Part shown: positions 5,614 to 47,427 of the stretch, in pieces | Layout: every line of letters starts with the position of its first letter | Position numbering within the stretch: position 1 is the stretch's first letter | NCBI GenBank assembly: GCA_958366945.1 | Contig: CATXCY010000002.1 | Coordinates: 66,917 to 130,916, forward strand | DNA length: 64,000 nucleotides | Reading direction: 5' to 3' | DNA from: an uncultured bacterium | GTDB taxonomy: Bacteria; Vulcanimicrobiota; Xenobia; Xenobiales; Xenobiaceae | Notes under the pieces: model-generated | Told to the model about the DNA's origin: nothing | Database searches by the model: none | What the model saw: only the letters and a program-made list of their open reading frames with translations | Made by a program: the position numbers and the translations under genes

Positions 5614-6216
5614 CTAAGGTTTGTCGTCGCCGTCGAAGTCGTCGGGATCTAAATTGTCAATAAATTGGGACAAAGTGTCATCTTCAGCTGTTAAATTTTG
5701 TACAGCGTTGGAACCTGAACTCTCTTGGTCTTCATTGGCCTCGTCATCACGATCTGATTCTTCTTCACCTACATAAAAGACGTCTTCTTCAGCTTTTGGA
5801 GTGTCAAAACTTATGCTTTTAACTCCTTCAGAGCGCAACACTTCTTCTTCGGCATAAATAGGAGCGTCGGCTCGAAGAGCTATGGCTATACTATCTGAAG
5901 GACGTGCGTCTATAGTAATTTCTTCACCATTTTTTAATAGCACTAACTTGGCATAAAAAGTGCTGCGCACAACTTTAGTAATGATAACTTCTTTGATAGA
6001 AGCGCCAAGACTGTTAATGATTGTTTTTATAAGATCGTGAGAAGTAGGGCGAGGAACTTCCGTACCTTCCATGGCTAAAGCAATGGCTGTCGCTTCAAAC
6101 ACGCCTATGGTAATGGGGAGACTATGATTTTGATTCTCATCAGTCAGAATTACGACTGGGTCGTGGGCAATAATGTCGATACCTAACTTGTAGACTTGCA
6201 TTTTGCAAAGAGCCAT
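5614..6216 (-). CDS. Bifunctional nuclease (BFN/DUF151) family protein with an acidic C-terminal tail
   Basis: PITIGVFEATAIALAMEG, PRPTSHDL and IDARPSDSIAIALR match the BFN-domain pattern. The last ~60 aa are Asp/Glu-rich. Confidence 0.7.
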   Translation of the reverse strand: MALCKMQVYKLGIDIIAHDPVVILTDENQNHSLPITIGVFEATAIALAMEGTEVPRPTSHDLIKTIINSLGASIKEVIITKVVRSTFYAKLVLLKNGEEITIDARPSDSIAIALRADAPIYAEEEVLRSEGVKSISFDTPKAEEDVFYVGEEESDRDDEANEDQESSGSNAVQNLTAEDDTLSQFIDNLDPDDFDGDDKP

Positions 6217-7770: not shown

Positions 7771-7882
7771 TGTTAACTTCGACAGTGCTTTTTTAGCTGT
7801 TTGTTTTGCTAAATGCAAGAATTTAAAGCAATAATCGCCGACAGTTGCTCTATTGGGCGACTGTCTTTACTTGATAAATTTT

Positions 7883-10288
7883 ATGATTAGAAACAATAAT
7901 CCGATTGTCGCAATTTTAAGTTGCTTTATGTCAATAGCGTTGCTTTTTAGCTTAACGCTTTCTGCCAGCGCCGATCCTGGCAACTCTCGGCCAAAATCTG
8001 CTGAAGCTACAGGCGCTTCGGCTGTAGAATTGCACAACTTACGTGAACTCAGTCTGGGCTTTTGTCCGGGGCAGGCACGCGCTGTTTCTTATCGCACTGC
8101 CGCCAGAGTTACAAGTGATGAAGGCATGGTGTTTGGGCCTGGTACAGGTGAAGAAATCGGTCTTTACAATCCCGAAGGCTCAATTTGCTGCAGCCAAGGA
8201 CGCTTTTTTGTTTTTTTAGATAAACATTGGTTGACCAGTACCAATTTGTCTACCGGCAAACAAGTAGCCAAAGTGGCTATAAAGAGTGAAGACGGCCAAA
8301 TTGTTATGGTGCAAGATAGTGTTACTATTTTGCGTCAAGGCGATCTTGTGTCTGCATATCGTCAAGATACTTTACAATTGCTTTGGAAACATGATTTTTC
8401 AGATGATCTGGGATCACTTTCTGAAAATATGGCTTGTTGGCCGAATTATATTTGCCTTGTAGGTCAAGAAAAAGTTGAAGATGGCTCTTTCCGCGCCGCT
8501 CTAATCAGAGTAAGTGATGGCCAAATAGTTTGGCAAAACGTATTTAAAGGCAGCTGTTTGGGGCTAGCTGCTGCAGCAGAAAATGCTTATATAGCTATAG
8601 CTGATGGCAAAACTAAAAATAATAATTCTGTAGGCGTTGCCAAAAATGAGCATATTTTTGCCATCAATTTAGAGCGCAGAGAGATTAACTCTCTGCCTAT
8701 AACTCATTTCGCCCGTTTCTATGCCCACGGCAACCGTTTGTATCTCTTTACTGCCGAGCCATTTGAAACTGAGCTTAACTATAGGCTCTCTACCTATTCT
8801 TCTGCATTACAAAGACTTAATGAATCAGATGGCATAGTTTGTGAGTCTTTGCCTAAGTGGATCGATTTTGGTGACGATAAAGTCAGCATTCTTTGCCATG
8901 TGAGAGTTAGTTTTGGCAGTTGGAATTTCATGACTATTTCTTCCGAGGACGGTGCGCTAAGTTCTTCGGTAGTAGATAATAGAGAAATAGTGCAAGCTAT
9001 ACCTGATAAAGTCGGTACTTGGCTGTTTTTACGTGAAGAAGGAGTTCGCTATCCTGGCTTATTTTTGCTTACCGAAGATAGTTTAGTTCCCGCTGCTGAT
9101 TGCGCTATGGAATTAGCCGACAGCACTTATTTAGGATGCAATTCCGCTATTATTGGCGGTTTGCTGTATGCTTGGGGATTTGAAGATAATAACCAAAATT
9201 TGCAACTTTTTATTTTGGATTTTGACAAAAATTCTAGCTCAATTTGGACAGATAAAAGTATCAAGTCGGCCGATTTAGCTTTATATGGTTTAGCTCCAGC
9301 CATAGTAGAAAAGACCAATGATTGGCTTACCGGTGAAACTTTTAGCACTTTTAAAGTTATTAACCCCACACAAGGTGGCTTTAGCTTTACGTCCGAAAAA
9401 ATTAAAGGCGATTTTTGTAGTAGTGCGATAGGGGAGAAGGAAAATATCTATGTACTTACTTCCCAAGGAGAGTTAAACGCTCTTAGTGCCGATGGGCGCT
9501 TGATTGGCAAACCGGTGGACAATGCCTTTTTTGACTGGACTAAGTGGAACAATTTAGTTGGAGTTCTCTTTTTAACCGGTTGCATTCTATGGTTTATTGT
9601 TCAGGCTAAACGCGGTAAAAAATTATTTATTCGCAAGATTGCCGGTTTAAACGCGTTAGATGAAGCTGTCGGTCGCGCTACCGAAATGGGCAAGCCTGTT
9701 TTATATATTCCCGGCGTTGGCGAAATAGACGATACACAAACTATGGCTGCTCTATCTGTTTTGGGCCATGTTAGTAGCTGCACTGCTGAATATGATTGCC
9801 CTATTATGGTGCCCAATTGCAGTCCAGTGGTTATGTCCATGGCTCAAGACGCTGTCAGTCAAGCTTACTTAAAAGCCGGTAGGCCAGATTCATATGTGAG
9901 CGACTACATATGTTACCTGTCCGGTGAGCAATTCGGCTTTGCGGCTGGAGTTTGCGGTTTAATGGTGCGTGAAAAACCGGCGGCTGTTCTCTATATGGGT
10001 ACCTTCTTGGCTGAAGCTCTTATGTTAGCCGAGACGGGTAATTCTACAGGCGCTATTCAAATAGCCGGTACGGCCAGCGCTTCGCAATTGCCTTTCTTCG
10101 TGGCCGCTTGCGATTATACGCTTATCGGTGAAGAATTATATGCCGCTTCGGCTTACTTGTCAGATGATCCCATGCAAATAGGCTCTCTCAAAGGCCAAGA
10201 TGCTGCTAAGGCTTTAATTATGGCTTTAATTATTGTAGGGGTTATTTGTTTAAGCTTAGGTTGCGATTGGATAAATTGTTTGTGGTAG
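7883..10288 (+). CDS. Signal peptide + periplasmic PQQ/BamB-like beta-propeller + TM + conserved C-terminal domain, function unknown
   Basis: The ORF opens at 7853 (TTG); the ATG at 7883 gives MIRNNNPIVAILSCFMSIALLFSLTLSASA/DPG. Repeated xGxxxWxxxF strands are present (LLWKHDF, IVWQNVF). A TM lies near aa 570, followed by a ~220-aa domain ending in another TM. Confidence 0.6.
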   Translation: MIRNNNPIVAILSCFMSIALLFSLTLSASADPGNSRPKSAEATGASAVELHNLRELSLGFCPGQARAVSYRTAARVTSDEGMVFGPGTGEEIGLYNPEGSICCSQGRFFVFLDKHWLTSTNLSTGKQVAKVAIKSEDGQIVMVQDSVTILRQGDLVSAYRQDTLQLLWKHDFSDDLGSLSENMACWPNYICLVGQEKVEDGSFRAALIRVSDGQIVWQNVFKGSCLGLAAAAENAYIAIADGKTKNNNSVGVAKNEHIFAINLERREINSLPITHFARFYAHGNRLYLFTAEPFETELNYRLSTYSSALQRLNESDGIVCESLPKWIDFGDDKVSILCHVRVSFGSWNFMTISSEDGALSSSVVDNREIVQAIPDKVGTWLFLREEGVRYPGLFLLTEDSLVPAADCAMELADSTYLGCNSAIIGGLLYAWGFEDNNQNLQLFILDFDKNSSSIWTDKSIKSADLALYGLAPAIVEKTNDWLTGETFSTFKVINPTQGGFSFTSEKIKGDFCSSAIGEKENIYVLTSQGELNALSADGRLIGKPVDNAFFDWTKWNNLVGVLFLTGCILWFIVQAKRGKKLFIRKIAGLNALDEAVGRATEMGKPVLYIPGVGEIDDTQTMAALSVLGHVSSCTAEYDCPIMVPNCSPVVMSMAQDAVSQAYLKAGRPDSYVSDYICYLSGEQFGFAAGVCGLMVREKPAAVLYMGTFLAEALMLAETGNSTGAIQIAGTASASQLPFFVAACDYTLIGEELYAASAYLSDDPMQIGSLKGQDAAKALIMALIIVGVICLSLGCDWINCLW

Positions 10289-10327
10289 TTTTGTTTTTAA
10301 GAGTTATTTATGTGCAGAGGTTAAGTT

Positions 10328-10990
10328 ATGAAGCGTGAGATTCCTTTGCTGATTACTTCCATAGCCGGCTTGGTTATGATTGTGCAATTTTATACTTACC
10401 CACTCAATTGGTTGGGCGATCTATTCAATGATTTTTACAATATCATTTTGACTTTCGCTTTTGTGTTGGGGGCTTTAAGTCTTTTTGCCGTCAATGGCAA
10501 AAAAATACTCAGTCAGACTCCGGGATGGGGCTACAACTTAGTATTGCTTATTTCCTTGGTGGTAACTCTAGTTTGCGGATTATTTTTAGCTCCCCAAGGT
10601 AAGTTGCCTACCGATGAGGGGACAGCTTTTAGTTGGATCTTTGACAATATCTTTACTCCTTTGTCGGCAGCTACTTATAGCTTGTTGGCTTTTTATATAG
10701 CGTCAGCTTCTTTTAGAGCTTTTAGGGCGCGATCTTGGGAAGCTACCTTACTTCTGGTAACTGCTTTTATAGTTATGCTTTTTAGGGTGCCTTTGGGAGA
10801 GCACTTGTGGCACGCTTTGCCTATTGTCGGACAGTATGATATTGCCAAATTTATTGAAGATTGGCTGATGGGAGCTTTTAACGCGGCTGGCCAAAGAGCT
10901 ATTCTTTTAGGAGCTTCGGTCGGTTTAATTTCTGTATCATTAAAAATACTTTTGGGCATTGAACGCTCTTACTTGGGAGGCTCCGACTAA
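10328..10990 (+). CDS. Integral membrane protein, function unknown
   Basis: 220 aa with about 6 hydrophobic spans. Its stop overlaps the next start (TAATG at 10988-10992). Confidence 0.6.
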   Translation: MKREIPLLITSIAGLVMIVQFYTYPLNWLGDLFNDFYNIILTFAFVLGALSLFAVNGKKILSQTPGWGYNLVLLISLVVTLVCGLFLAPQGKLPTDEGTAFSWIFDNIFTPLSAATYSLLAFYIASASFRAFRARSWEATLLLVTAFIVMLFRVPLGEHLWHALPIVGQYDIAKFIEDWLMGAFNAAGQRAILLGASVGLISVSLKILLGIERSYLGGSD

Positions 10991-11829
10991 TGTTAGCCAA
11001 ATTGGCCCATTTGGATAGGCGTTGGATCTTTTTAGCTTTGGCTCTGTCCGTGGTTATACCTTTGCTTTGGCCGCCGGAATTGCCGGTTGAGCCCAGTCCT
11101 TTAAGCAAGAAATTTTACAATACTGTAGAGCAATTGCCAGAAGGCTCTTACGTCTGTTTGTCCTTTGATTATGGGCCGGGTACCAAAGTTGAGTGCCATC
11201 CTATGGCTGTAGCTATGTTGCACCACCTTTTCCGTCGCCAATGTAAAGTTGTCTGTATCGCTTTATGGCCTGAAGGTAGCTTGTTTGCTAGAGAAGCTTT
11301 GCAACAAGTGGCTCCTCAATACAATGCCCAAGACGGAATTGATTACGTAAATTTAGGCTATAAAAATGGTGGCGAAGTTGTGTTAAGAGCTATGGGCGAA
11401 AGCTTTAGTTCTATGTTTCCGGCCGATTTGGCTGGTCGACCTACCGAGAGCCTACCTATTATGCAAGAAGTTAAGGGCTGGGAAAGTTTCGCTCTGGTTT
11501 GTGATTGGTCTATGGGAAGACCCGGTTTAGCTGAATTTGTGCGTGTAGTTGTAGGACAATACCATCGTCCTTTGCTTTCTGGCACTACTGCTGTAACTAC
11601 TCCAGAAGCTTATCCATTTCTAAACTCCGGTCAGGTAATCGGCCTTTTGGGCGGTTTGCGTGGAGCCAGCGAATATGAAGTTTTGATAGGCTTAAAAGGC
11701 GGTCAGGCTACTAGAGGTATTGACGCTCAATCAATAGCCCATTTCTTCGTGGCTTTTTTAATCATTTTGGCCAATGTTATTTACTTTTCTGAACGTTGGG
11801 CCGACAAAAATAACGGCAAAAAGCTGTAG
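10990..11829 (+). CDS. Bitopic membrane protein (N- and C-terminal TM), distantly similar to the C-terminal domain of the 7883-10288 product
   Basis: 279 aa. By-eye similarity to the upstream protein: GSYVCLSFDYGPG...HPMAVAMLHHL vs GKPVLYIPGVGE...QTMAALSVLGHV, and LLSGTTAVTTPEAYPF vs QIAGTASASQLPFF. Translationally coupled to the previous gene. Confidence 0.6.
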   Translation: MLAKLAHLDRRWIFLALALSVVIPLLWPPELPVEPSPLSKKFYNTVEQLPEGSYVCLSFDYGPGTKVECHPMAVAMLHHLFRRQCKVVCIALWPEGSLFAREALQQVAPQYNAQDGIDYVNLGYKNGGEVVLRAMGESFSSMFPADLAGRPTESLPIMQEVKGWESFALVCDWSMGRPGLAEFVRVVVGQYHRPLLSGTTAVTTPEAYPFLNSGQVIGLLGGLRGASEYEVLIGLKGGQATRGIDAQSIAHFFVAFLIILANVIYFSERWADKNNGKKL

Positions 11830-11847
11830 AGAGGCTGAAAAATAGAA

Positions 11848-12495
11848 ATGGAAGCTCATTCTTTAAGCGATATGGTGGGAATGTGGATAGGCGTTTGCCT
11901 AACCATGTTTATTTTTAGCTTTCTTTACAAAGATAATCCCTTTTATAAGTTGGCAGAGCATATCTTTGTGGGCGTGTCGGCTGGCTATTGGATGTGCATA
12001 GGTTACTGGCAAGTAATTTACCCCAACTTGATTTTAAAATTGCAAGCTGGAGATTGGCGCTACCTCATAGCAGCCGCGTTAAGTATTATGCTTTTGGCGC
12101 GTGTTTGCCCAAAATATGCTTGGCTGAGTCGCTGGCCCCTGGCTTTTATGGTCGGTATTTTTGCTGGTTATAATATCGTTTATACGATGGAAGCTCAGGT
12201 TTTGCGCCAGTTGGAAGCCACAATTGTGCCTCTCTGGGGATGCGCCAGTTGGAAAGCATTTTTTATAAATTTAATTATTGTCACCGGTGTTTTGAGTGGC
12301 CTTATGTATTTTTACTTTTCCAAAGAACATAAGGGAACGCTTTGGGGAAAGACAGCTCAATTCGGTATTGGCGTTTTAATGATTTCCTTTGGAGCAGCTT
12401 TCGGATATACTGTAATGGCCAGAATCTCTCTACTTATAGGCAGAGTTATGTATATACAAGACGTTTGGCAAGCTACTGTGCGCTTTTTTAGTTAA
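11848..12495 (+). CDS. Integral membrane protein, function unknown
   Basis: 215 aa with about 6 hydrophobic spans. Lies 18 nt after the previous gene. Confidence 0.6.
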   Translation: MEAHSLSDMVGMWIGVCLTMFIFSFLYKDNPFYKLAEHIFVGVSAGYWMCIGYWQVIYPNLILKLQAGDWRYLIAAALSIMLLARVCPKYAWLSRWPLAFMVGIFAGYNIVYTMEAQVLRQLEATIVPLWGCASWKAFFINLIIVTGVLSGLMYFYFSKEHKGTLWGKTAQFGIGVLMISFGAAFGYTVMARISLLIGRVMYIQDVWQATVRFFS

Positions 12496-12553
12496 AAATT
12501 CTAGAAGAAACATAAACGAATACCTCGATAGCGAAAGAGAGGGACTGTGAGCT

Positions 12554-13717
12554 ATGGCTAACGATACTCGAAGTAGCACTTCCAATTTTGCCAACGGCAG
12601 GCGAGAGGAAGGAGAATCTTCGCCTGACAGAATGGGCAGCACTCAATTTGAGGTAAGCGACTCCGAGTTGTCGGCGGAAGACTTAGAGGCTGTGTCTTCT
12701 GGGGCTATGTTTTTCGAAACGATTGGCTATAACAGTACGGGCGGTGGTGCTGAAGTTTACAGATTGTTAGGCCAAGTGGTTAGAAAAATTGAAGGCCTGG
12801 GCGATGCTTTTATCTACTTCTTGCGCTGTTTAGTCGTGGCTATTGCTCTAATTTGTGGCTCTTGCTTTTTATATAAAAATTTCTTTTGCGTTACACGTAA
12901 CTATGACCACGATATTTTATGGATCCTGGCAATCTTATTGCTTGCTTCGATAATTTGTCTCTTCTTAAGTGTAACTTTTGCAGCTAGAACGACTTCACAA
13001 AGAGAGCAAATTGCCCAAAGATACAAAGATGGCTATGCTCGTGAAAACTTAACGTATAAAAATATCTCTTCACCTTGTAATTCACTCACTTTAAGTTTCT
13101 ACAATCATGGGCGTTTCCTATTTTCTGTAGCTGCCTATACTCTTGCTTCTGTAGTTTGCATTGGGACTCTTTTAGGCTTTTTATATGTTGGCATTCTATT
13201 TTTTAGCTCTGAATCAGCTGGCGAATTTGTAAGCTTTTTGCCTTATTTGTCAATTATTCTGGTAGTATTGATAATTGCTTTTGTGGTAGTTTGCTGGCAA
13301 AAAACTGTAGTGGGCTATTCTTTAACTTTTGATAAACAAGGTATAAAAGGCGAATATTACTATTGTAACAATACTAAGATGCGCTTTATTGATGCTTATA
13401 CTAACGTCTCTCCCAGTGAAGTTCGCTATTCCGATTTAATTAGAAGTTGTGGAGACTACATTGTGTGGGAAAATTTCCTTTGTTTTTCTTACCATAAAAA
13501 CTGCTTGGTTCTGTGGAAGAGCAATCGGCCTAAATTTAACTTTAGGACTACTATGTTGATACAATTCGATTTCTACCCAAGTATTGAAGAAGATTCAGAC
13601 CCCAGACCTTTAAGGATTTGTGGCACTGAGAATGAAATAAGCGAACTAAGGGATTTTTTATCCAGTTTTATGCCTTGTTTACCTGCATTCGGTCAGGATT
13701 GTCAGGCTATTGTTTAG
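12554..13717 (+). CDS. Membrane protein, 4 TM + C-terminal YcxB/PH-like domain (paralog 1 of 6)
   Basis: Acidic N-terminal tail and 4 hydrophobic spans. C-terminal motifs are LTFDKQGIKGE, IVWENFLCFSYHKNCLVLW and PLRICGTENEISELRDFLSSFMP. Confidence 0.7.
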   Translation: MANDTRSSTSNFANGRREEGESSPDRMGSTQFEVSDSELSAEDLEAVSSGAMFFETIGYNSTGGGAEVYRLLGQVVRKIEGLGDAFIYFLRCLVVAIALICGSCFLYKNFFCVTRNYDHDILWILAILLLASIICLFLSVTFAARTTSQREQIAQRYKDGYARENLTYKNISSPCNSLTLSFYNHGRFLFSVAAYTLASVVCIGTLLGFLYVGILFFSSESAGEFVSFLPYLSIILVVLIIAFVVVCWQKTVVGYSLTFDKQGIKGEYYYCNNTKMRFIDAYTNVSPSEVRYSDLIRSCGDYIVWENFLCFSYHKNCLVLWKSNRPKFNFRTTMLIQFDFYPSIEEDSDPRPLRICGTENEISELRDFLSSFMPCLPAFGQDCQAIV

Positions 13718-13756
13718 CTTTTTGCTCTATTGAGAAATCGAAGGAGGACCGACACT

Positions 13757-14809
13757 ATGAGTGACTATTTCCATGATGATGAATTGGAAGAACTCGAGCG
13801 ACAAGACGACGGTATAGATCCTTTTGAAGGTGTAAGCGAAGAGGAAAAACGGAAAGTTCTTCTTACGATAGAGCAGATGATGTTCAGTGATACTTCGCTC
13901 TATTGTTTGCGTGGTGCAGCTGTATTGCTAGATATTTTGATTTTTACTTGGGTATTTAACTCAGTAGGCGCTGCTGGTGGTTGCAAAGGTGTTGGCCCTA
14001 TGGGGGCGCTTTATCTTCTGGCTATAGTTTTTTGTTGCCTGGTCTCTTGTACAGCCTTTGAATTGAAAAATTGTAAGCAGCGAGTCGAAGAACAATTACA
14101 AGCTGAAAAAGAACAAAAAGCTGAAGCTGAATTGCAAAAGCGTTTATCTGGAATCGGCACTTTAACAATTACAGACAAGGTTGCTTCTAAGCGCGTAGCA
14201 GCACGTTTGCTACTTTATGTAGGCTCTATATTCGCTCTTTCGATTATTATATTCGGTTTGGGAATTGGCCTTACCGACAGCTTTGACAGCCTCATGCGTG
14301 ATATATGTGCCCCTGGATGGAAAAATTTCTTTGTGTTCCCTGTATCTATGGCTGTATTTATGTCCATGGGGCCGATTTGTTTAGTTGTATTCGCTTGGCA
14401 AGGATCATGTTTAACTTTCAATAAATCTGGTATTAGCGGCGAAGTCTACAACGCTTTTCAAAAGGCTGAAAATGTAATTGACTATTGTGCCGAAAAAAAC
14501 AGAAAAACTGGCCATATTATTAAACGTTACTACGATATAGATATTGAATCCCAACCCAATTGTATAAAATGGACCAATTTTAAATGTTTCTCAGTGCATC
14601 GCAATTGCATAGTGCTTTGGCAAAAAGAACATATGCAAGCCAGTTTTCTGGCTAAATTGTATGTTAAGCTCGGCTGGAATCTTTGCCTCAATCAGTACCC
14701 ATTGAGAATTTTAGGTACGCCTGCTGAACTATCCGAGCTTAAGCATATGCTAGGTCAAATTATACCTAGCTGTTGCAATTTTTTACCTGGAGAAAAAGCC
14801 ATTCTTTAG
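13757..14809 (+). CDS. Membrane protein, 4 TM + C-terminal YcxB/PH-like domain (paralog 2 of 6)
   Basis: The ORF opens at 13730 (TTG). The ATG at 13757 has AAGGAGG (13741-13747) upstream. Motifs are LTFNKSGISGE, IKWTNFKCFSVHRNCIVLW and PLRILGTPAELSELKHML. Confidence 0.7.
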   Translation: MSDYFHDDELEELERQDDGIDPFEGVSEEEKRKVLLTIEQMMFSDTSLYCLRGAAVLLDILIFTWVFNSVGAAGGCKGVGPMGALYLLAIVFCCLVSCTAFELKNCKQRVEEQLQAEKEQKAEAELQKRLSGIGTLTITDKVASKRVAARLLLYVGSIFALSIIIFGLGIGLTDSFDSLMRDICAPGWKNFFVFPVSMAVFMSMGPICLVVFAWQGSCLTFNKSGISGEVYNAFQKAENVIDYCAEKNRKTGHIIKRYYDIDIESQPNCIKWTNFKCFSVHRNCIVLWQKEHMQASFLAKLYVKLGWNLCLNQYPLRILGTPAELSELKHMLGQIIPSCCNFLPGEKAIL

Positions 14810-14933
14810 GAGAAAGAAGTTCGCTAAGCTGCCACAATATAATAAATTGAGGCAAGAACTTAGTGTAAGTAACCGAAAGTTATTGCTAAATGGTGTCAAT
14901 ATCTAATGATTGTCCCTAAGGAGCGCAAAGACT

Positions 14934-15677
14934 ATGAGTGACGATTCCGGCTATCATTATGATTCTTCGGATAACGATGAATTCTCTGGCAGCAGCTTTT
15001 CTGACAATGCTTATGACACAAATCAATCTGTGGTAATAGATTATGAGTTTTCTCTGAAAAGTTTAATGGCTGTTTTGGCTTTTAAAATTGTTTATGCTCT
15101 TCTTTTCTGTATTATATTCGCTCTTATATGGCCATTCTTCTCAGAACATAAAAATGCAGAAGATTCATTCACTTTTTTCTTTTTTCTCAATCTTATTAAC
15201 CCTATGTCCTGGGCAGTGGGGGCTATTATTCCTTGCCCCTTTAGATTTATCAAACAATATCATGTGATATTCTCTTATTATGGTATAAGCGGTAGTGCTG
15301 AGAGTTGGTTGTGTGAAAAGCTTGATTTAGATAAAGCAGTTACACCTACTAGGTATATTCGCAACGGCCCTGAAACCTCTTTGCTTCCTAAATTTACTTT
15401 AAACGAAGTTGTCGATACTAAATATATCTCTTGGGAAAATTTTCACAGTTTTACTTGCCACAAAGATTGTATAATGCTATGGAGAGAAGCTGAGCCGCCC
15501 ATTAAGAAAAAATCTGCTCAATGGGCTGTGCAAACGGGCTTCAGTTTAGATGACACAATTGCTCCGCTGCGTGTTTGTTGTAATGATATAAATGAATTGC
15601 GCAAATTGCGAGATTTTTTAGCTGAGCGTTTACCTGAAGTACATACTAATTATGCTGGATTAAGAGTCATTTTTTAA
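14934..15677 (+). CDS. Membrane protein, 2 TM + C-terminal YcxB/PH-like domain (paralog 3 of 6)
   Basis: The ORF opens at 14910 (TTG). The ATG at 14934 is preceded by AAGGAG. Motifs are YYGISGS, ISWENFHSFTCHKDCIMLW and PLRVCCNDINELRKLRDFLAERLP. Confidence 0.7.
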   Translation: MSDDSGYHYDSSDNDEFSGSSFSDNAYDTNQSVVIDYEFSLKSLMAVLAFKIVYALLFCIIFALIWPFFSEHKNAEDSFTFFFFLNLINPMSWAVGAIIPCPFRFIKQYHVIFSYYGISGSAESWLCEKLDLDKAVTPTRYIRNGPETSLLPKFTLNEVVDTKYISWENFHSFTCHKDCIMLWREAEPPIKKKSAQWAVQTGFSLDDTIAPLRVCCNDINELRKLRDFLAERLPEVHTNYAGLRVIF

Positions 15678-15712
15678 CTAACTGTCGATAAGCATAGTGA
15701 AGAGGAGTTATC

Positions 15713-16378
15713 ATGGAAGATAGTTTTTATCAAGAGTCTGATAGTCTCGATTCTGTAACTGTAAATTGCAAATATAATTATGGAAAGAACTTTGAACTTA
15801 TACTTTTGTGTCTAGTTTTTTCTGTTATTGTTATCACTATTACTGGTGCATATATTTTTGCGATGATGGGAATGTGGAAAGATTTCTTCTATGCGATAGC
15901 CCATCCAATTCAAAGATGGAACGACGTGTGTATGCTCGTCTTCTTATGTGTGCTTCTTTTTGCTACTTCTCTTGTCATTTGCATAAATGGAATTGGCAGT
16001 TATACCTTGGTTTTCGATAATAATGGCATTACTGGAACTTACTCAAATTGGGCTATTAGTAACGGAGATTTCATAGACGCTATAACTGTAAAAAATAGGT
16101 ATACAAGGTATACCATTTTTGATGTTGACTATGTCGAAGGAAATAGATACATCTCTTTAGATAGTTTCAAAAGCTTTTCTCGCTACAAAGATTGTATAAT
16201 ACTCTGGCGCACTAAACATCCTCAGGATACGTTTGGAATGCGTTTTTTCTTGCGTTACAATTCCTGGGGCTTACTTCCTAAGGGCAATTGTCCCTTAAGA
16301 GTTTGCAGTAATGGATCTGATCTGGCTAATTTACAAGATTTTCTGTCTCAGCGTTTGCCGCAAGTTCAGCCTTTGTAA
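15713..16378 (+). CDS. Membrane protein, 2 TM + C-terminal YcxB/PH-like domain (paralog 4 of 6)
   Basis: Motifs are LVFDNNGITGT, ISLDSFKSFSRYKDCIILW and PLRVCSNGSDLANLQDFLSQRLP. GAGGAG lies upstream. Confidence 0.7.
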   Translation: MEDSFYQESDSLDSVTVNCKYNYGKNFELILLCLVFSVIVITITGAYIFAMMGMWKDFFYAIAHPIQRWNDVCMLVFLCVLLFATSLVICINGIGSYTLVFDNNGITGTYSNWAISNGDFIDAITVKNRYTRYTIFDVDYVEGNRYISLDSFKSFSRYKDCIILWRTKHPQDTFGMRFFLRYNSWGLLPKGNCPLRVCSNGSDLANLQDFLSQRLPQVQPL

Positions 16379-16483
16379 GCTCTAGTAAAACATAAGCAGT
16401 TTTAACTTCCTAAGCAGTAATTAAGTTTGCCTCGGTCAAATAAACAAGCTGGAACAATACTAACTTTTTAGTGGAGGCTAGCT

Positions 16484-17251
16484 ATGTTTCAAGAAATTGG
16501 AGATTATCTTAATCGCTACCAGGATGATCTGTATAGAGACAGAGCCACTGAAGTTCCTTATTCGGCTTTAGTTGTCTTTCATAAACAATATTATGGCAAG
16601 GGTTGGACTAAGTTTTTTAATTTTTGTAAACCTATTATAGTTGTGTCTGTAGTTGCAGGTTCCGTCGGTTACGCGTCTATAGTCGGCTGGGGGGTACTTT
16701 TCCATACTTTTACAGCCTGGCAATTAGTTGGAGCTATTTGTGCTTTTATAGCTTGTGTGGCTTTGGGGCTAAGCTTCGGGGATCATAAAGACACGGAGCA
16801 AACTCTCATCTTTACTGATAAAGGTTTAACTGTAGTTATTCCCGGAGATTACAGTAGTCGCGGTTTGACTACCTCGGAAAATATCTTAAAATTCTGCTTC
16901 TCGAGTAGTCGAAAAACTATCCCAGAAAAGGTAGTAAAATATCCTCCTTTTGCTTCCTCTCCGGAAGAAGAGATGGCTTGGAATAATTTCCGCAGCTATT
17001 CTGTTATTCATCACAAAAAGCGGGACAATGTCTCTATAAAATTGTGGCTAGTCGACGATCCTAAGTCGGGAAGCCAAAACGCCCGCCGTTTAAGAGAAAA
17101 ACAGCTTGACTGTGTAGAAATTTATCTGCGCGACGATGGAGGAAGATACACTGGGTATAATGATGAAAAATCTGAGTTGGATGCAACTATAAAATTCTTA
17201 AACGACAGAGTCTCATTGCCTTTGTATTCTGAAGAACAAGTAGAAGATTAG
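16484..17251 (+). CDS. Membrane protein, 2 TM + divergent C-terminal YcxB/PH-like domain (paralog 5 of 6)
   Basis: Motifs are LIFTDKGLTV, MAWNNFRSYSV, IKLW and SELDATIKFLNDRV. GGAGG lies upstream. Confidence 0.6.
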   Translation: MFQEIGDYLNRYQDDLYRDRATEVPYSALVVFHKQYYGKGWTKFFNFCKPIIVVSVVAGSVGYASIVGWGVLFHTFTAWQLVGAICAFIACVALGLSFGDHKDTEQTLIFTDKGLTVVIPGDYSSRGLTTSENILKFCFSSSRKTIPEKVVKYPPFASSPEEEMAWNNFRSYSVIHHKKRDNVSIKLWLVDDPKSGSQNARRLREKQLDCVEIYLRDDGGRYTGYNDEKSELDATIKFLNDRVSLPLYSEEQVED

Positions 17252-17315
17252 GATTTAATTGCTGCGGCAAACGGATGGGGGGCAACAAGCAAAAAGGTAT
17301 ACATGTATTCATTCT

Positions 17316-17342
17316 GAAAAGGGCGCTGGGCGCTTTTTTTAT
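17316..17342 (+). terminator. Possible weak intrinsic terminator/attenuator inside the paralog array
   Basis: In gaaaagggcgctgggcgcttttttt, a GCGC/GCGC stem is extended by G-U and A-U pairs and followed by T7. Confidence 0.4.
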
Positions 17343-17373
17343 TAGAAAATGTAACTGATTAGAGGAAAGAAAA

Positions 17374-17874
17374 TTGAGTAAAAAACATCGTCGGAACGAG
17401 CGTAATCAGGCTAAAAAGAACGAATTGATGCTCCCTTTATCCATTAAGCAGCATCCGGCAGCCAGACGTCCTTGGCTCACTGCAGTGATTGTACTCTTTT
17501 TATTTTTGATGGTCTTTTCTATGTTTAGTTCTAAAGCTGGCTGGAGTGGTTTATTGGTACCGGCTCTTTTGCTGGGCATTATTTTGCATGGTTTGGTTCC
17601 TTATTTTTTCCCCACTACTTTTACTTTCGATAAGGAACAAATAACTGTCAGCCGCTTTGGTAAGCCCTCTATTTTTAAGTGGGATGATTATCGCTCTTAT
17701 TCAGTTCAGGGTAACGGTTTTGTACTGTGGATGGAAATGCATCCAGCTTCCAAAACTTCTTCTTTTTCTGCCTACTTTAAGAGTTTACGCAACTCCGTTT
17801 TTTTGCCTTTAGATGAAGAGGCTATGCAAAAAGTAGAGCCTTTAATTGCTAAAAAATTGGTCAAAACAGAGTAG
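17374..17874 (+). CDS. Membrane protein, 2 TM + minimal YcxB/PH-like domain (paralog 6 of 6)
   Basis: Basic N-terminus and a TM hairpin. Motifs are FTFDKEQITVSRFGKPSIFKWDDYRSYSVQGNGFVLW and VFLPLDEEAMQKVEPLI. TTG start (an in-frame ATG 18 codons later is an alternative). Confidence 0.6.
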   Translation: MSKKHRRNERNQAKKNELMLPLSIKQHPAARRPWLTAVIVLFLFLMVFSMFSSKAGWSGLLVPALLLGIILHGLVPYFFPTTFTFDKEQITVSRFGKPSIFKWDDYRSYSVQGNGFVLWMEMHPASKTSSFSAYFKSLRNSVFLPLDEEAMQKVEPLIAKKLVKTE

Positions 17875-17886
17875 GCAAAGGTTAGT

Positions 17887-18222
17887 ATGAAGATAAATTG
17901 GCGAGAAATGTGGTCTCTGGAGGAACCTTCCAATATAGAAGAAAGCAGAGAAGAAACGGAAAAAGACATTAAAAATATCGCCAGTTCGGTAGTGGCGATC
18001 CATTTGGGCATTCCGGCTTTATGGCTTTTAGAGTCTTGTAAGCCACTATCTTTTATAGCTAACCAAGCTTTGGTCTTTTTCTCTCCGGCGGCTAATTTTG
18101 TAGGACTCGACTCTTGGTGGCGTAAAGCGACGACAATTTCTTCCCGACGTTCCAACGTGGAAGCTTTTATAGAAGCTATCGAGCAATTGGAAATAAAAAA
18201 ACATGAACAAGAAAATAGATAA
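17887..18222 (+). CDS. Small hypothetical protein with a central hydrophobic region
   Basis: 111 aa, starting 12 nt after the previous gene. Its 3' end overlaps the next gene by 20 nt. Hydrophobic segment: VVAIHLGIPALWLLESCKPLSFIANQALVFF. Confidence 0.45.
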   Translation: MKINWREMWSLEEPSNIEESREETEKDIKNIASSVVAIHLGIPALWLLESCKPLSFIANQALVFFSPAANFVGLDSWWRKATTISSRRSNVEAFIEAIEQLEIKKHEQENR

Positions 18223-20005
18223 AGATTCTATCCGTTCTATCTTGGCTACAGATTGTGGCAGCACTACTACCAAAGCCATTTTAATTGAAAAAGGGCCTGA
18301 GGGCTTTCGTTTACGGGCTAGAGGAGAGGCCCCTACTACTGTAGAGGCTCCAGCCGAAGACGTTACTCAAGGTGTGCGCAACGCTATTACTGAGCTTTCT
18401 GAGTTAATTGGGCGTCCTCTTTTAGATGAAAATGGACAACTTATTAAGCCTTACGATGGAAAGCAAGGGGTGGACATTTATCTTTCCACTTCGTCGGCCG
18501 GCGGCGGTTTGCAAATGATGGTAGCTGGTGTAGTAGCCAAAATGAGCTCAGAAAGTGCCCAACGAGCCGCCTTAGGCGCCGGAGCCGTCGTAATGGAAAC
18601 ACTTTCTTCTAACGATTCGCGTCGTCCTTACGAAAAAATTGAGCTTATTCGCAAGCTTCGTCCCGATATGGTTTTGCTTTCTGGTGGCGTTGATGGTGGC
18701 GTGCAAAAACATGTGGTGGAAATGGCCCAACTTTTTAGCGCCGCCGATCCGCGTCCTCGCTTGGGGGTAAACTATAAGCTGCCGGTTATTTTTGCTGGCA
18801 ATAAAGATGTACGCGAGCAAATTAAGAAGATTTTAGGCTCAAAAACAGCTTTAGAAATAGTTGATAATATTCGTCCTACTTTGGAAGAAGAAAATCTTCA
18901 GCCTGCTCGTCTTAAAATTCAGAGTCAATTTTTAGAGCATGTCATGGCCCACGCTCCAGGGTACCCAAAACTTATGGCCATGACAGACGAGCAAATTATG
19001 CCCACGCCGGCAGCTGTGGGAATGATTATGGAGCGGGTGGCCCAAACGCGTTCGATTAACATTTTGGGCGTTGATATCGGCGGCGCCACGACTGACGTGT
19101 TTTCCGTATTCGACGGCCATTTCAATCGTACCGTGTCGGCCAACTACGGTATGAGTTACTCTATTTCCAACGTGGTAGCTGAAGCCGGTTTGAAAAACGT
19201 TATGCGTTGGGTTCCCTTTGATGTAGACGAGCCTCAGTTGCGTAATCGCATCAAAAATAAAATGATTCGTCCGACTTCTATACCTTATCTTATGGAAGAT
19301 TTGGAAATAGAGCAGGCTATCTGTCGCGAGGCTTTGCGTCTTTCCTTTGAACAACACGCTTTGTTGGCCGACGGCTTAAAAGGCGTACAGCACCAGGCTG
19401 AAATAGGCTCAATTTTTAGCCAAGGTGAGAAACGCTCACTTATAGATCCTATGCGTTTAGATATGCTTATCGGCTCCGGCGGCGTACTTTCTCATGCACC
19501 TGAGCGTTGGCAAACGGCTTGGATGTTACTTGATTCATATCTACCTTGCGGCATTACTCAGTTGGCTGTCGATTCTATTTTTATGATGCCGCAACTGGGA
19601 GTGCTTTCTTCTATTTTGCCTGAAGCTGCTGCTTATGTCTTTGAGAAAGATTGTTTAATTGAATTAGGCACTTGTATAGCTCCTCGCTTTACTAACGGTA
19701 AAGCGCTGGCTCCTGGCCAAGATTTGCTTAAAGTTGAGCTTGAAGGTCAAGCGCCTTTCACTTTGCATATGGGAGAAATTAAGGTAAAAAAGTTGCCAGT
19801 AGGGCAAAATATTAAGGCTCGTTTATTCCCTCTAAGTCGCACCGATGTGGGGCGAGGAGCTGAGCAAATTGTAGAGTGTGTGCTTAAAGGCGGTACAACG
19901 GGGTTAATATTTGATGGGCGCGGTCGTGAACCGTTTGTACTTCCTCAGGAACGTTCGGTTCTTATCAACAAACTTCAAGAATGGAAGGCAGCTTTAAAGG
20001 GATAA
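18203..20005 (+). CDS. GlmL/MutL-family (glutamate mutase component L-like) ASKHA actin-fold ATPase
   Basis: Phosphate-1-like ILATDCGSTTTKAILI, SSAGGGLQM, LLSGGVDGG, and a second nucleotide motif ILGVDIGGATTDVF. 600 aa, longer than the clostridial GlmL I remember. Confidence 0.7.
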   Translation: MNKKIDKDSIRSILATDCGSTTTKAILIEKGPEGFRLRARGEAPTTVEAPAEDVTQGVRNAITELSELIGRPLLDENGQLIKPYDGKQGVDIYLSTSSAGGGLQMMVAGVVAKMSSESAQRAALGAGAVVMETLSSNDSRRPYEKIELIRKLRPDMVLLSGGVDGGVQKHVVEMAQLFSAADPRPRLGVNYKLPVIFAGNKDVREQIKKILGSKTALEIVDNIRPTLEEENLQPARLKIQSQFLEHVMAHAPGYPKLMAMTDEQIMPTPAAVGMIMERVAQTRSINILGVDIGGATTDVFSVFDGHFNRTVSANYGMSYSISNVVAEAGLKNVMRWVPFDVDEPQLRNRIKNKMIRPTSIPYLMEDLEIEQAICREALRLSFEQHALLADGLKGVQHQAEIGSIFSQGEKRSLIDPMRLDMLIGSGGVLSHAPERWQTAWMLLDSYLPCGITQLAVDSIFMMPQLGVLSSILPEAAAYVFEKDCLIELGTCIAPRFTNGKALAPGQDLLKVELEGQAPFTLHMGEIKVKKLPVGQNIKARLFPLSRTDVGRGAEQIVECVLKGGTTGLIFDGRGREPFVLPQERSVLINKLQEWKAALKG

Positions 20006-20008
20006 AAT

Positions 20009-21139
20009 ATGAGCAGCGCTTATGTGCCAGGATTAAAAGTTACCGATCATGCAGAATTAAAAATTGAGAGGCGCTTACCGCTTAAGGGCAGCGTTGTGGT
20101 AGCCAAAGGTGATACTGTTAGCTGGAATACGGTTGTGGCCAATACTTTTTTGCCGGGCAGCGTCGAGTTGGTTAATGCTGCGGCCAAACTGGGGATCTCT
20201 CCGGAAGAAGTGCCCCAAGCTATGCTTAAAAGTGAGGGCGACCAAGTATCTAAAGGTGAAACTTTGGCTCGCAGCAAGGGCTTTTGGGGGTTGTTTCGCT
20301 CCAATCTTGCTTCTCCTATTAGCGGCACAGTTGAATCTGTCTCCGAAGTTAGTGGCTTAATCGTTTTGCGGGCGCCTTCTGTACCCGTCGAAATAAATGC
20401 TTATGTCGATGGTATAGTTGAAGATATCCTACCTGAAGAGGGAGTTATTATCAGAACTTCGGCTGTTTATATCCAAGGTATCTTTGGTATAGGCGGTGAG
20501 ACAGCTGGAGAAATTTGCATTTTTACTGAAGATCCCGATGAAGAATTGCAAATCGAGCGTCTTAGTGAAGCTTATAAAGGCAAAATTCTGGTCGGAGGAG
20601 CTTTAGTTACGGCCGATTTCTTGCGTAAAGCTGTGCAATATGGTGTGAAAGCTGTGGTAACTGGTGGCATTTCTGACGCCGATTTAGCCGATTTTTTGGG
20701 TTATGACTTAGGAGTAGCTATTACTGGCTCTGAAGATAAAGGCATTACCTTAATTGTTACTGAGGGCTTTGGCAAGATCGCAATGGCTGAGCGCTCTTTC
20801 AATTTGCTCAAACGCTGTGTCGGCCGTTGGGCTTCCGTTTCCGGAGCTACTCAAATTCGAGCTGGAGTTATTCGTCCAGAAATAATTATTGCTGATAATG
20901 TTGACTCTAAGCCCAGAGAAGAAAAATCCACTGCTGTCTCGTCTGGTTTACATATCGGTTCTAAAGTGCGTCTTATTCGCGAACCTGATTTCGGAAAAAT
21001 AGCTATAGTAGCTGAATTGCCTTCAGAAGCCGAGCTTATCCCCACTGGAGCTAAAGTTCGCGTAGCCAGAGTAAAATTGGACGATGGCCGCTTGCTTTCT
21101 TTGCCCAGAGCTAATTTGGAAATAATTGAAGAAAGTTAA
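20009..21139 (+). CDS. Hypothetical protein with barrel-sandwich-hybrid-like N-terminal motifs and a Rossmann-like middle region
   Basis: Starts 3 nt after the ASKHA gene. KGDTVSWNTVVA and EGDQVSKGETLA resemble lipoyl/biotinyl-type hybrid hairpins. Also GKILVGGA...GVKAVVTGGI and TEGFG. Confidence 0.55.
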   Translation: MSSAYVPGLKVTDHAELKIERRLPLKGSVVVAKGDTVSWNTVVANTFLPGSVELVNAAAKLGISPEEVPQAMLKSEGDQVSKGETLARSKGFWGLFRSNLASPISGTVESVSEVSGLIVLRAPSVPVEINAYVDGIVEDILPEEGVIIRTSAVYIQGIFGIGGETAGEICIFTEDPDEELQIERLSEAYKGKILVGGALVTADFLRKAVQYGVKAVVTGGISDADLADFLGYDLGVAITGSEDKGITLIVTEGFGKIAMAERSFNLLKRCVGRWASVSGATQIRAGVIRPEIIIADNVDSKPREEKSTAVSSGLHIGSKVRLIREPDFGKIAIVAELPSEAELIPTGAKVRVARVKLDDGRLLSLPRANLEIIEES

Positions 21140-37700: not shown

Positions 37701-37950
37701 ACCAGCTATCCAAAACCTTAGATTGTGAGCGCAATTGGATTGCTCTGGTGCCTTTAAGTGTGTCTAAATAAATGCTTTTTATTAGCGGAGATGGAGAAAA
37801 AGACTCAACAGAAGCACGGGCTGTGTCGAGTAAAAGGCCTCTGACTGACGTAGAATAGGCTTCAGCTACGGTGGTTACGGCTTTATGTACTGCCTGACAG
37901 CCGATATTGCCTAAACCTACAAACAAAAACTTAGTCTGATCTTTAGTCAC
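34789..37950 (-). CDS. Giant tubulin/FtsZ-superfamily (Tubulin_2-like) protein with a long helical C-terminal region
   Basis: N-terminal FLFVGLGNIGCQAV (T1-like), VVVCSSLGGGTSSAHIDLAYLLR (T4-like GGGTGSG variant) and ANIYAGLIELNHW. About 650 further residues have no recognised domain. Confidence 0.55.
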   Translation of the reverse strand: MTKDQTKFLFVGLGNIGCQAVHKAVTTVAEAYSTSVRGLLLDTARASVESFSPSPLIKSIYLDTLKGTRAIQLRSQSKVLDSWLPNFPMTLEPGSGLFGSKALGRLALIINIVQIAEAFKEQVKELTAQSQDESEIQVVVCSSLGGGTSSAHIDLAYLLRAQLESLSIKHKIIALFPYSKQLPESETTAANIYAGLIELNHWMDESTLHKFACDLDEVDLWEIPEDESKANKRDESTAEILAKLDIYLAENVRNVNPGLGKEHKESEEAQNESETTQKTNGRVDLKESFTPVYDIVLFNSLEKFNDELESQTLSHTLVRLTYWYFESTPLYSRLAQSLVAIQPQNEPSFLAINSTDASNETDNCNYADLHSYQVARPTQKILSVARNLSSQAVVAELYNLFFEKDLEQDNVRGLEMGKDFIKTRNLDSLEVHRRYTKCWRQLENGLYDAASFIKQKLDEVYQKPLYGAELVTYCQTFDSELQKLADKCETQPGFFAALAQTTKDISDDFVIGIDNVISDTVNRQHNGIAMQSMIDEVNKQLSFSLSALHERTNNAKSEMIRLEEQKNKAIASLATFKPSLWQRMMRKVDFTPLEEAGKVITEYYENVFVSYVGREEVNAFFNMINVCENTTKRLHKLRHFLDDSISDLKSSNRHLYKQILEDADEPLISSQEAVSYIASHASPPDLMLFVKALDQLTDFNLLDLPTRYSLPDWLSALRDVVAKLYPMHDPKTVDEFLKSYPEEKLGKKLNAIGNAIASQFVYAAPFNLPNNSAQRQVLVSFDTCANELNEALESNMQSRQQAECLTQALQKAHFSVPGSIIDEPTSETLDFVELTSGFALADLEISEYKDAYLESLVRGNRAMQARKDVKLKSLFKVDKRTHFNVVLLLASAFKFGVLQEREDPNSYDKELRLTSNKWMDLTSIRACLKVFADPVEALIFENNFYQELLKWRQQQMNSMGMNAWLKAMAPDAWGGEPFVNRPESCFYSLNLDKQMLTLQELMSRDLERHWPSWKYKIAEFLKQGLDLKAAIAKTVQPSITEWLEMRWKKEHPL

Positions 37951-47414: not shown

Positions 47415-47427
47415 GCGATAAAAGATT

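Follow-up and report, generated by a model that had tools for sequence, protein, structure and literature searches.

In a 64,000-nucleotide (nt) stretch of DNA from an uncultured bacterium of the Vulcanimicrobiota (family Xenobiaceae, contig CATXCY010000002.1), here called the window, an unbroken series of genes on the forward (+) strand extends from position 7853 to 21139, and most of the products are predicted membrane proteins. This locus raises the question of whether these genes encode one envelope-associated system and, if so, which activity such a system may have. The closest genome is a metagenome-assembled genome (MAG) of Candidatus Bruticola (Vulcanimicrobiota, class Xenobia). Comparison with loci from other phyla revealed two conserved groups of genes, module A with g01 to g04 (7883-12495) and module C with g10 to g13 (17374-21139), which were repeatedly located next to each other. 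Tentatively, with a probability that approaches an even chance without reaching it, the block may be regarded as one envelope system composed of two modules, in which the ATPase module C works on or regulates the membrane cassette encoded by module A.

The series comprises 13 open reading frames (ORFs) of 111 to 811 amino acids (aa) with a spacing between −20 and +122 nt. An earlier annotation by a model from the letters alone, the sequence-only reading, had counted 14 genes; the uninterrupted + strand run was recovered, but every gap between the ORFs in 7853-21139 was too short for a further gene. Its upper limit of 124 nt for the gaps agrees with the widest one found, 122 nt between g09 and g10, and its three overlaps or near-overlaps could be located at g02/g03 with 1 nt in common (ATGA), at g11/g12 with a 20-nt overlap, and at g12/g13 with 3 nt in between. 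Hydropathy analysis predicted transmembrane (TM) segments in the 11 products g01 to g11, with g11 being a borderline case, and none in g12 and g13, which reduces the proposed number of 12 membrane proteins by one. No component matched a housekeeping family, as had been supposed. A run of this kind might result from chance, with genes on the same strand lacking any functional unity, or the ORFs might be spurious, and a hairpin at 17316-17342 together with gaps of about 100 to 120 nt would permit separate transcription units. Against this, orthologs of 8 of the 13 ORFs are conserved in many phyla with their order retained, and close relatives share the remaining five. The comparison of loci across phyla has effectively refuted a chance run, to which hardly any probability remains.

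Module A encodes a DUF6754 protein, which carries a probable periplasmic propeller, and three families without a Pfam match. The predicted order within g01 (7883-10288, + strand; TM segments at residues 15-40, 565-586, and 781-811) is a signal peptide, a variable periplasmic domain, a TM segment, the cytoplasmic DUF6754 domain, and a C-terminal TM segment. The ORF as listed begins with a TTG at 7853, but the ATG at 7883 is the likelier start because it yields a canonical signal peptide (...SLTLSASA|DPG) and because the TTG lies within a strong hairpin. The C-terminal 250 residues of g01 matched the Pfam family DUF6754 (PF20539) over its full length (386.7 bits with a cutoff of 27, profile positions 3 to 253 of 257); this family is a domain definition with no recorded function, partners, or structure. 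The N-terminal region, for which a propeller had been proposed, remained below the threshold for PQQ_2 in g01 itself (20.4 versus 27.6 bits), whereas 14 of 59 members of the g01 family matched this profile (best E value, 1.9e-33), as did the 68%-identical protein P0009. From these relatives, the periplasmic domain of g01 is a probable PQQ/BamB-like beta-propeller. Besides the propellers, 2 of the 59 homologs contained an FN3 domain in this position, and the N-terminal domains of the remaining ones were not recognized.

DUF6754 belongs to a large family. When 1.84 billion representative proteins were searched with the domain, 2233 clusters at 50% identity were obtained, 830 of them with an E value of ≤1e-30. 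At 90% identity, the family comprises more than 8000 clusters. The domain is about 50 to 60% identical between phyla, 50 to 78% identical in the non-self matches listed, and 97% identical in the close relative P0002, with N-terminal extensions that differ greatly in length among the matches. Its invariant polar residues are an R, an E, the triplet C214-D215-Y216, the pair E221-E222, and K247. The AlphaFold2 (AF2) model of the domain was poor (mean predicted local distance difference test [pLDDT] score, 65, and <50 in the most conserved stretch) and hints at a Rossmann-like beta-alpha start located between two TM helices; a Foldseek search with this model gave no match at an E value of ≤0.001.

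The second cassette gene, g02 (10328-10990, +), is predicted to encode a protein with about six TM segments and was found directly 3' of g01 in nearly all loci, with a mean column identity of 51% in its alignment (A5). The start of the third gene, g03 (10990-11829, +), overlaps the stop of g02; its product should contain a TM segment with the N terminus inside, a periplasmic alpha/beta-like domain of about 210 aa, and a second TM segment, and it matched neither a Pfam family nor a structure in the PDB. The fourth, g04 (11848-12495, +), is again a protein of about six predicted TM segments and, like g02, without a Pfam family. No invariant cysteine residue was present in the alignments of g02 or g04, and a lenient Pfam scan of 72 orthologs of g02, g03, and g04 revealed no consistent family. 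According to the positive-inside rule, the N-terminal domain of g01 and the domain of g03 are predicted to be periplasmic, while the DUF6754 domain, both tails of g03, and the C-terminal domain of g10 are cytoplasmic, so that the soluble proteins g12 and g13 would share the compartment of the latter. Two ideas concerning the origin of the cassette were discarded: comparisons with hhalign of DUF6754 with g03 and of g02 with g04 showed them to be unrelated, which speaks against an internal duplication, and the cassette domains were also unrelated to g13, which speaks against a mimicry of subunits.

For the comparison between phyla, one genome per GTDB species was scanned with DUF6754, which gave 595 confirmed loci. 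Seventy-nine were kept, from Zixibacteria, Ignavibacteria, Fermentibacteria/Aegiribacteria, WOR-3, Stahlbacteria, Cloacimonadota, Coatesbacteria, Edwardsbacteria, Planctomycetota (including Singulisphaera MAGs), Poribacteria, Desulfuromonadaceae, and Vulcanimicrobiota, and the six-frame ORFs of these loci were searched with the proteins of the window. Wherever a DUF6754 locus contained enough DNA, the order g01-g02-g03-g04 was retained in essentially all cases (about 79 species genomes, more than 10 phyla). Two or three cassettes followed each other in tandem in 24 of 78 loci.

Module C encodes a 2-TM protein, a small helical protein, an actin-fold ATPase, and a barrel-sandwich/KOW protein. 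Its central component, g12 (18203-20005, +), is a 600-aa actin-fold ATPase of the ASKHA (acetate and sugar kinase/Hsp70/actin) superfamily and belongs to the MutL/GlmL family, with an additional C-terminal domain of about 115 aa. The match to PF13941 (410.7 bits, cutoff of 27) covered profile positions 1 to 450 of 450, in agreement with the sequence-only reading, which had recognized an actin-fold ATPase and a soluble partner. The scores remained under the cutoffs for GlmL itself, with 229.2 versus 475 bits for the equivalog NF040745 and 159.8 versus 204.05 bits for TIGR01319; by these profile scores, g12 is assigned to a distinct subfamily of MutL/GlmL. The motifs D17-C-G-S-T-T-T-K24 (phosphate-1), D291-I-G-G-A-T-T-D298 (phosphate-2), and S425-G-G-x-L-S-H431 (adenosine) were invariant in 19 orthologs. 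Between phyla, the orthologs had a mean column identity of 69% and an identity of about 60%.

The partner protein g13 (20009-21139, +) is soluble and consists of 376 aa, which are about 54% identical between phyla. Its AF2 model (pLDDT, 85) contains an N-terminal barrel-sandwich hybrid, a beta-barrel, an alpha/beta domain, and a C-terminal KOW/SH3-like domain. Foldseek returned matches to this model at the level of single domains alone (NusG/KOW, PA-like) and no global match. In Pfam, the matches of g13 to RnfC_N (22.8 versus 25.6 bits), NqrA_N (17.5 versus 25 bits), and biotin-lipoyl domains were all below the threshold, and the Foldseek probability for RnfC (8ahx_C) was 0.08. The lipoyl-like barrel-sandwich domain of g13 has no conserved lysine residue.

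Two small proteins precede this pair. The first gene of the module, g10 (17374-17874, +), encodes a 2-TM protein whose N-terminal tail is basic and whose cytoplasmic domain of about 90 aa is possibly pleckstrin homology (PH)-like; its orthologs were located upstream of g11-g12-g13 in many loci. The next gene, g11 (17887-18222, +), encodes a small protein that is conserved and contains a hydrophobic helical hairpin (LTVPAI.FLES.KPLSF.GSQ); the gene shares 20 nt with the start of g12; 25 orthologs of g11 were positioned immediately upstream of g12. In 35 of 51 g13-anchored loci with enough room, g12 was immediately upstream of g13, and orthologs of g11 and g10 preceded g12. The ATPase pair was present as a tandem duplicate in the order g10-g12-g13-g11-g12-g13 in three loci (L108, L123, and L157; L numbers designate single loci) and partially in L130 and L150. 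From this arrangement, g10 and g11 may each be able to associate with a g12/g13 pair of their own.

Other searches with these proteins remained empty. A comparison by sequence profile of the DUF6754 domain, g02, g03, g04, g12, and g13 with the PDB gave no meaningful match, NCBIfam contained no family for g02 to g06 and g11 among the scanned proteins g01 to g06 and g10 to g13, Pfam contained none for g02 to g09 and g11, and none of the 10 proteins compared with the defense models of PADLOC (g01 to g05 and g09 to g13) gave a match. Of the eight conserved components, seven are without assignment to a functional family and six without any Pfam family, with g01 being covered by DUF6754 alone.

The central evidence for a connection between both modules is their location. 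In the forward direction, g12/g13 were present inside the flanks of 12 of 39 DUF6754-anchored loci. In the reverse direction, metagenome contigs were scanned with an alignment of g13, which gave 80 loci, and the cassette adjoined g13 in 11 of the 31 g13-anchored loci whose flanks reached 3 kb or more; for flanks of 5 kb or more, the figure was 10 of 22. Module A was thus found beside module C in about 30 to 45% of the loci in both directions of the search. Both modules were contained in 47 loci and were co-oriented in 41 of them, with gaps often between 4 and 400 nt. In many phyla, g12/g13 beside a cassette were usually accompanied by g11 and often by g10. An unbiased clustering of neighboring ORFs gave the same picture from both sides, since g12/g13 were the commonest neighbors of the cassette, and the cassette was the commonest neighbor of g13 outside module C. 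The arrangement varied: module C was followed by module A in Fermentibacteria, Planctomycetota, and Desulfuromonadaceae; the order was A followed by C in the window and in L004, L011, L043, L120, and L152; and both modules were divergently oriented in loci of Ignavibacteria and Zixibacteria (L017, L026, L065, and L069). This variation argues for selection on proximity and not for a frozen ancestral arrangement. When apart, the modules may nevertheless occur in the same genome, as indicated by the locus-tag prefixes IJT10, HYU63, and M1269 that appeared in both lists of matches. Singulisphaera-assigned MAGs carry modules A and C. The co-localization is frequent, not obligatory, and its repetition over phyla, search directions, and gene orders supports a functional link. 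The check across taxa that the sequence-only reading had asked for gave a divided answer, with adjacency in many phyla from both directions and with the partner module beyond the retrieved DNA in about 55 to 70% of the loci. From the proposed single system of three submodules, modules A and C stood as conserved and repeatedly adjacent units, but g05 to g09 do not form a conserved third module.

Several observations weigh against a two-module envelope system. The partner module was outside the retrieved flanks in the 55 to 70% of the loci mentioned above, g13 of WOR-3 was apart from g12 as well as from the cassette, L166 contained g12-g13 without a cassette within 10 kb, and a Rosetta-stone search found no gene fusion between the families among 394 members. 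Through the terminator-like hairpin at 17316-17342, transcription of module C could become uncoupled from that of module A. No signature of a transporter was found in g02 and g04 by the PDB profile search and the Pfam scan, and the weak model of DUF6754 means that neither a docking surface nor an active site can be named. Moreover, the characterized relatives of g12, the GlmL proteins, are thought to be enzyme chaperones and not transport motors.

A different explanation would be two independent systems that frequently occur in synteny. In this case, the cassette would be a self-sufficient membrane complex, for instance, a secondary transporter, an envelope-biogenesis factor, or a scaffold factor, and g12/g13 would be a cytoplasmic chaperone- or reactivase-like pair with some soluble enzyme as its client, the function assumed for GlmL toward glutamate mutase. 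Separation of the modules in most loci, solitary g13 in WOR-3, solitary g12-g13 in L166, membership of g12 in the GlmL/MutL family, and glycine-cleavage genes directly 5' of g10-g13 in 14 loci are in agreement with this explanation. It does not account well for the reciprocal adjacency over many phyla in several arrangements, often with 4-nt gaps, or for the fact that g10 and g11, which accompany g12/g13, are membrane proteins. In addition, domain scans of the block and the window revealed no B12-mutase gene or another candidate for a client; domains of B12 mutase subunits (GlmS/GlmE, OraS/OraE) were absent from the block and from the scanned large ORFs of the remaining window. Two independent systems are considered unlikely, but they deserve to be taken seriously.

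If the modules cooperate in a two-module envelope system, the following sequence of events may be proposed. Module A would form a complex of four subunits in the cytoplasmic membrane. To the periplasm, it would expose a fast-evolving "receptor" domain, here a probable beta-propeller, plus the conserved periplasmic domain of g03, and to the cytoplasm, it would offer the highly conserved DUF6754 domain. The GlmL-type ATPase g12 and its barrel-sandwich/KOW partner g13 would be tethered to the membrane by g10 and g11 and would contact the cassette, so that binding and hydrolysis of ATP by g12/g13 could drive or gate conformational work in the cassette. As a result, a substrate or an envelope component may be moved through the cytoplasmic membrane or released from it. 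A single ATPase module would be shared by one to three paralogous cassettes that differ in their periplasmic domains, with the variable domain providing specificity, and g05 to g09 as fast-evolving relatives of g10 may diversify the membrane tether. Transport or translocation over the cytoplasmic membrane would be the likeliest activity because of the association with genes for TonB and TonB-dependent transporters (TBDTs) outlined below. The sequence-only reading had designated the function as pure inference, and this continues to be the case.

Alternatively, the products may constitute a membrane enzyme complex, for example, for modification of lipids or envelope polymers, with DUF6754 as the catalytic domain (invariant Cys-Asp-Tyr and Glu-Glu) and g12/g13 as an ATP-dependent activator or repair pair similar to DdrA/B or EutA. 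The many invariant polar residues of DUF6754 fit such a function, genes for AccA and nucleotidyl-transferases recur nearby, and ASKHA reactivases that act on partner enzymes are an established precedent. The nonpolymerizing members of the actin superfamily include the diol dehydratase reactivase, EutA, and glutamate mutase (PMC5597319). However, no catalytic fold or motif was recognizable, the Foldseek search was empty, and a cofactor-binding signature was missing, which leaves a low probability for an enzyme complex.

The products might also serve as a trans-membrane sensor or signaling system. The periplasmic domain of g01 would sense a cue, the cassette would transmit it, and cytoplasmic output or adaptation would be the task of the PH-like proteins together with the ATPase pair. 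This would explain N-terminal domains that vary between propeller, FN3, and unrecognized types on a constant core as well as the expansion of the small membrane adaptors g05 to g10, and genes for DUF4388/PATAN and response regulator proteins were recurrently found nearby. On the other hand, none of the components showed a kinase, cyclase, HAMP, PAS, or DNA-binding domain in the Pfam and NCBIfam scans, four conserved membrane subunits with a cross-phylum identity of about 55 to 60% would be unusual for a sensor, and the neighbors are housekeeping genes. The probability of a sensor is quite low.

A two-module envelope system remains the preferred reading. The eight conserved components are about 40 to 60% identical over more than 10 phyla, are located among housekeeping genes, and are all without a solved structure. 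Strong identity across phyla (about 60% for g12, 54% for g13, and 55% for DUF6754) combined with housekeeping neighbors is a pattern typical of a core cellular machine and points away from a mobile accessory. A more far-reaching proposal, which is regarded as doubtful, would be an ancient, unrecognized class of envelope machines, either a primary transporter or translocase or a mechanotransducer, that is core to many mostly uncultivated phyla (candidate phyla of the Fibrobacterota-Chlorobiota-Bacteroidota [FCB] group, Planctomycetota, Vulcanimicrobiota, and others) and is powered by an actin-fold ATPase in place of an ATP-binding cassette (ABC), P-type, AAA+, or rotary ATPase.

Comparison with known systems revealed partial similarities. 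With GlmL/MutL, EutA, and DdrA/PduG, g12 shares the full-domain match to PF13941 and the ATP-binding motifs of the ASKHA proteins, and as in DdrA/DdrB, there is a dedicated smaller partner, here g13. It differs from GlmL by scores below the curated cutoffs, the extra C-terminal domain, the absence of a B12 mutase nearby, and conserved neighbors that are membrane proteins. The organization, although not the sequence, resembles that of PilM-PilN-PilO, because the actin-fold protein g12 is encoded right after the small membrane proteins g10 and g11 as possible tethers to a platform of multiple subunits; there is no sequence relationship, genes for a pilus, secretin, or PilB/PilT are missing, and g12 represents another branch of ASKHA. 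By analogy only, one ATPase module per region for one to three paralogous cassettes recalls group II energy-coupling factor (ECF) transporters and MsiK-type ABC ATPases, and membrane subunits with periplasmic domains recall mechanotransmission by MacB or FtsEX. In contrast to all of these, the block is without an ABC_tran ATPase, a cognate permease, or homology to ECF S/T or FtsX, and its ATPase has an actin fold. The RnfC_N/NqrA_N-like barrel-sandwich N terminus of g13 (below the threshold), the two subunits of about 215 aa with about six TM segments, similar to NqrD/E, and the membrane-anchored subunit with a periplasmic domain, similar to NqrC, are reminiscent of the Rnf and Nqr complexes. 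Membership in this group was rejected since Rnf-Nqr, FMN_bind, Fe-S, and flavin motifs were absent and g02 and g04 lacked conserved cysteine residues.

Among transporters, secretion systems, motors, and respiratory complexes, no class is known with this composition. No relevant literature was found on DUF6754, PF13941, or GlmL combined with ASKHA, and neither literature nor database names connected DUF6754 with g02 to g04 or g10 to g13; the family proteins are listed as "hypothetical," "DUF6754 domain-containing," "fibronectin type III domain-containing," or "KOW domain-containing." This qualifies the block as a promising candidate for a machine of the cell envelope that has not been described before. 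If the modules cooperate, it would be the first known membrane system that is energized or controlled by a GlmL-type actin-fold ATPase, and the large family DUF6754 would obtain a function. The question may be testable in Singulisphaera if cultured strains carry both modules.

Between the two modules, five lineage-specific paralogs are encoded, all on the + strand. Four TM segments, a C-terminal cytoplasmic domain, and the motif W-x-x-F-x-S-F...LW (alignment A1) are predicted for g05 (12554-13717), and g06 (13730-14809) is its paralog. The products of g07 (14910-15677) and g08 (15713-16378) should contain two TM segments plus the C-terminal domain, and g09 (16484-17251) is the most divergent member. 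The architecture common to g05 to g10 is a cytoplasmic tail, two or four TM segments, and a domain of 90 to 130 aa with W-x-x-[FY]-x-S-[FY]...[VI]-x-L-W. The PH-like character that had been ascribed to these proteins is weakly supported, with all matches to bPH_6, YcxB, and DUF6585 being below the threshold (for g10, 17.6 versus 27.7 bits for DUF6585; among 23 members, bPH_6 in one and YcxB in two). Genes g05 to g09 were restricted to the three closest relatives, L001 to L003, with fewer copies in Bruticola sp. (L003). A hidden Markov model of g10 made from other phyla alone recovered g10 in the window (E value, 1e-21) but not g05 to g09, which assigns g10 to the conserved ATPase module. A comparison of g05 to g09 with the g10 orthologs by hhalign gave a probability of 15% across one shared motif. 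The GC content was 0.37 to 0.40 across g05 to g10 (window positions 12000-18000) versus 0.43 to 0.46 in the flanks, which fits an expansion that evolves rapidly or arose recently. Genes g05 to g09 are a Xenobia-specific, low-GC expansion with the architecture of g10, from which they were probably derived.

Two hairpins bear on the transcription of the block. A terminator-like structure at 7840-7865 (+) with an 11-bp stem and a free energy (dG) of −18.6 kcal/mol (z score, −5.0; 0 of 200 shuffled sequences as stable) is located 3' of the upstream gene for a short-chain dehydrogenase/reductase (SDR) and covers the nominal TTG start of g01 at 7853. It is the 5' border of the block. The second hairpin at 17316-17342 (+), already reported in the sequence-only reading, was recovered with a dG of −12.6 kcal/mol and a z score of −2.7 and is followed by seven U residues. 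Positioned exactly between the lineage-specific g05 to g09 and the conserved g10 to g13, it is a possible partial terminator or attenuator. A fold scan did not reveal a terminator 3' of g13, so that the downstream acyl-CoA-synthetase-like gene may share the transcript. Rfam families of RNAs were absent from the window.

Recurrent neighbors of the modules in other genomes were housekeeping genes (gcv, accA, era, and ppdk) or envelope genes. A SusC-like TBDT gene and the genes ExbB-ExbD-ExbD-TonB followed directly 3' of the cassette in Fermentibacteria (L006, L010, L018, and L084/L085), and the same set was present 3' of the cassette in WOR-3 (L025 and L039) and Stahlbacteria (L008). The glycine-cleavage genes directly upstream of g10-g13 were gcvT and gcvPA/PB; the 14 loci were L006, L010, L018, L029, L071, L105, L106, L109, L111, L135, L146, L154, L160, and L162. 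A lone g13 was followed by a gene for a predicted outer-membrane beta-barrel protein of about 290 aa without a Pfam family (L091:5647-6528), also in 11 further metagenome loci (L089, L095 to L097, L115, L121, L122, L124, L127, L138, and L149), and after this gene came AccA and then DUF4388/PATAN or Era. DUF4388/PATAN genes were found beside either module when the modules were apart, after g04 in L008, L024, L025, and L039 and near a lone g13 in L089, L095, L121, and L124. The DUF4388/PATAN domain has been tied to regulation of the motor of type IV pili (bioRxiv 10.1101/2021.06.11.447907).

Nothing in the neighborhood of the block suggests a mobile element or a defense island. The rest of the window contains ordinary chromosomal genes, such as those for UvrA, HtrA, an amidase, an L,D-transpeptidase, and an efflux set. 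The latter, with genes for OEP (TolC-like), HlyD, and MacB/FtsX at 44182-48645 (+), indicates that the organism has an outer membrane. A 1053-aa tubulin-like protein, the N terminus of which matched Tubulin_2 (PF13809; E value, 2.7e-15), is encoded at 34789-37950 (−). Upstream of the block, an 863-aa HD_5 (HD-GYP-like) protein is encoded at 2938-5529 (−) and a protein with a bifunctional-nuclease domain at 5614-6216 (−), and synteny of both genes was retained in L001, the 83%-identical relative.

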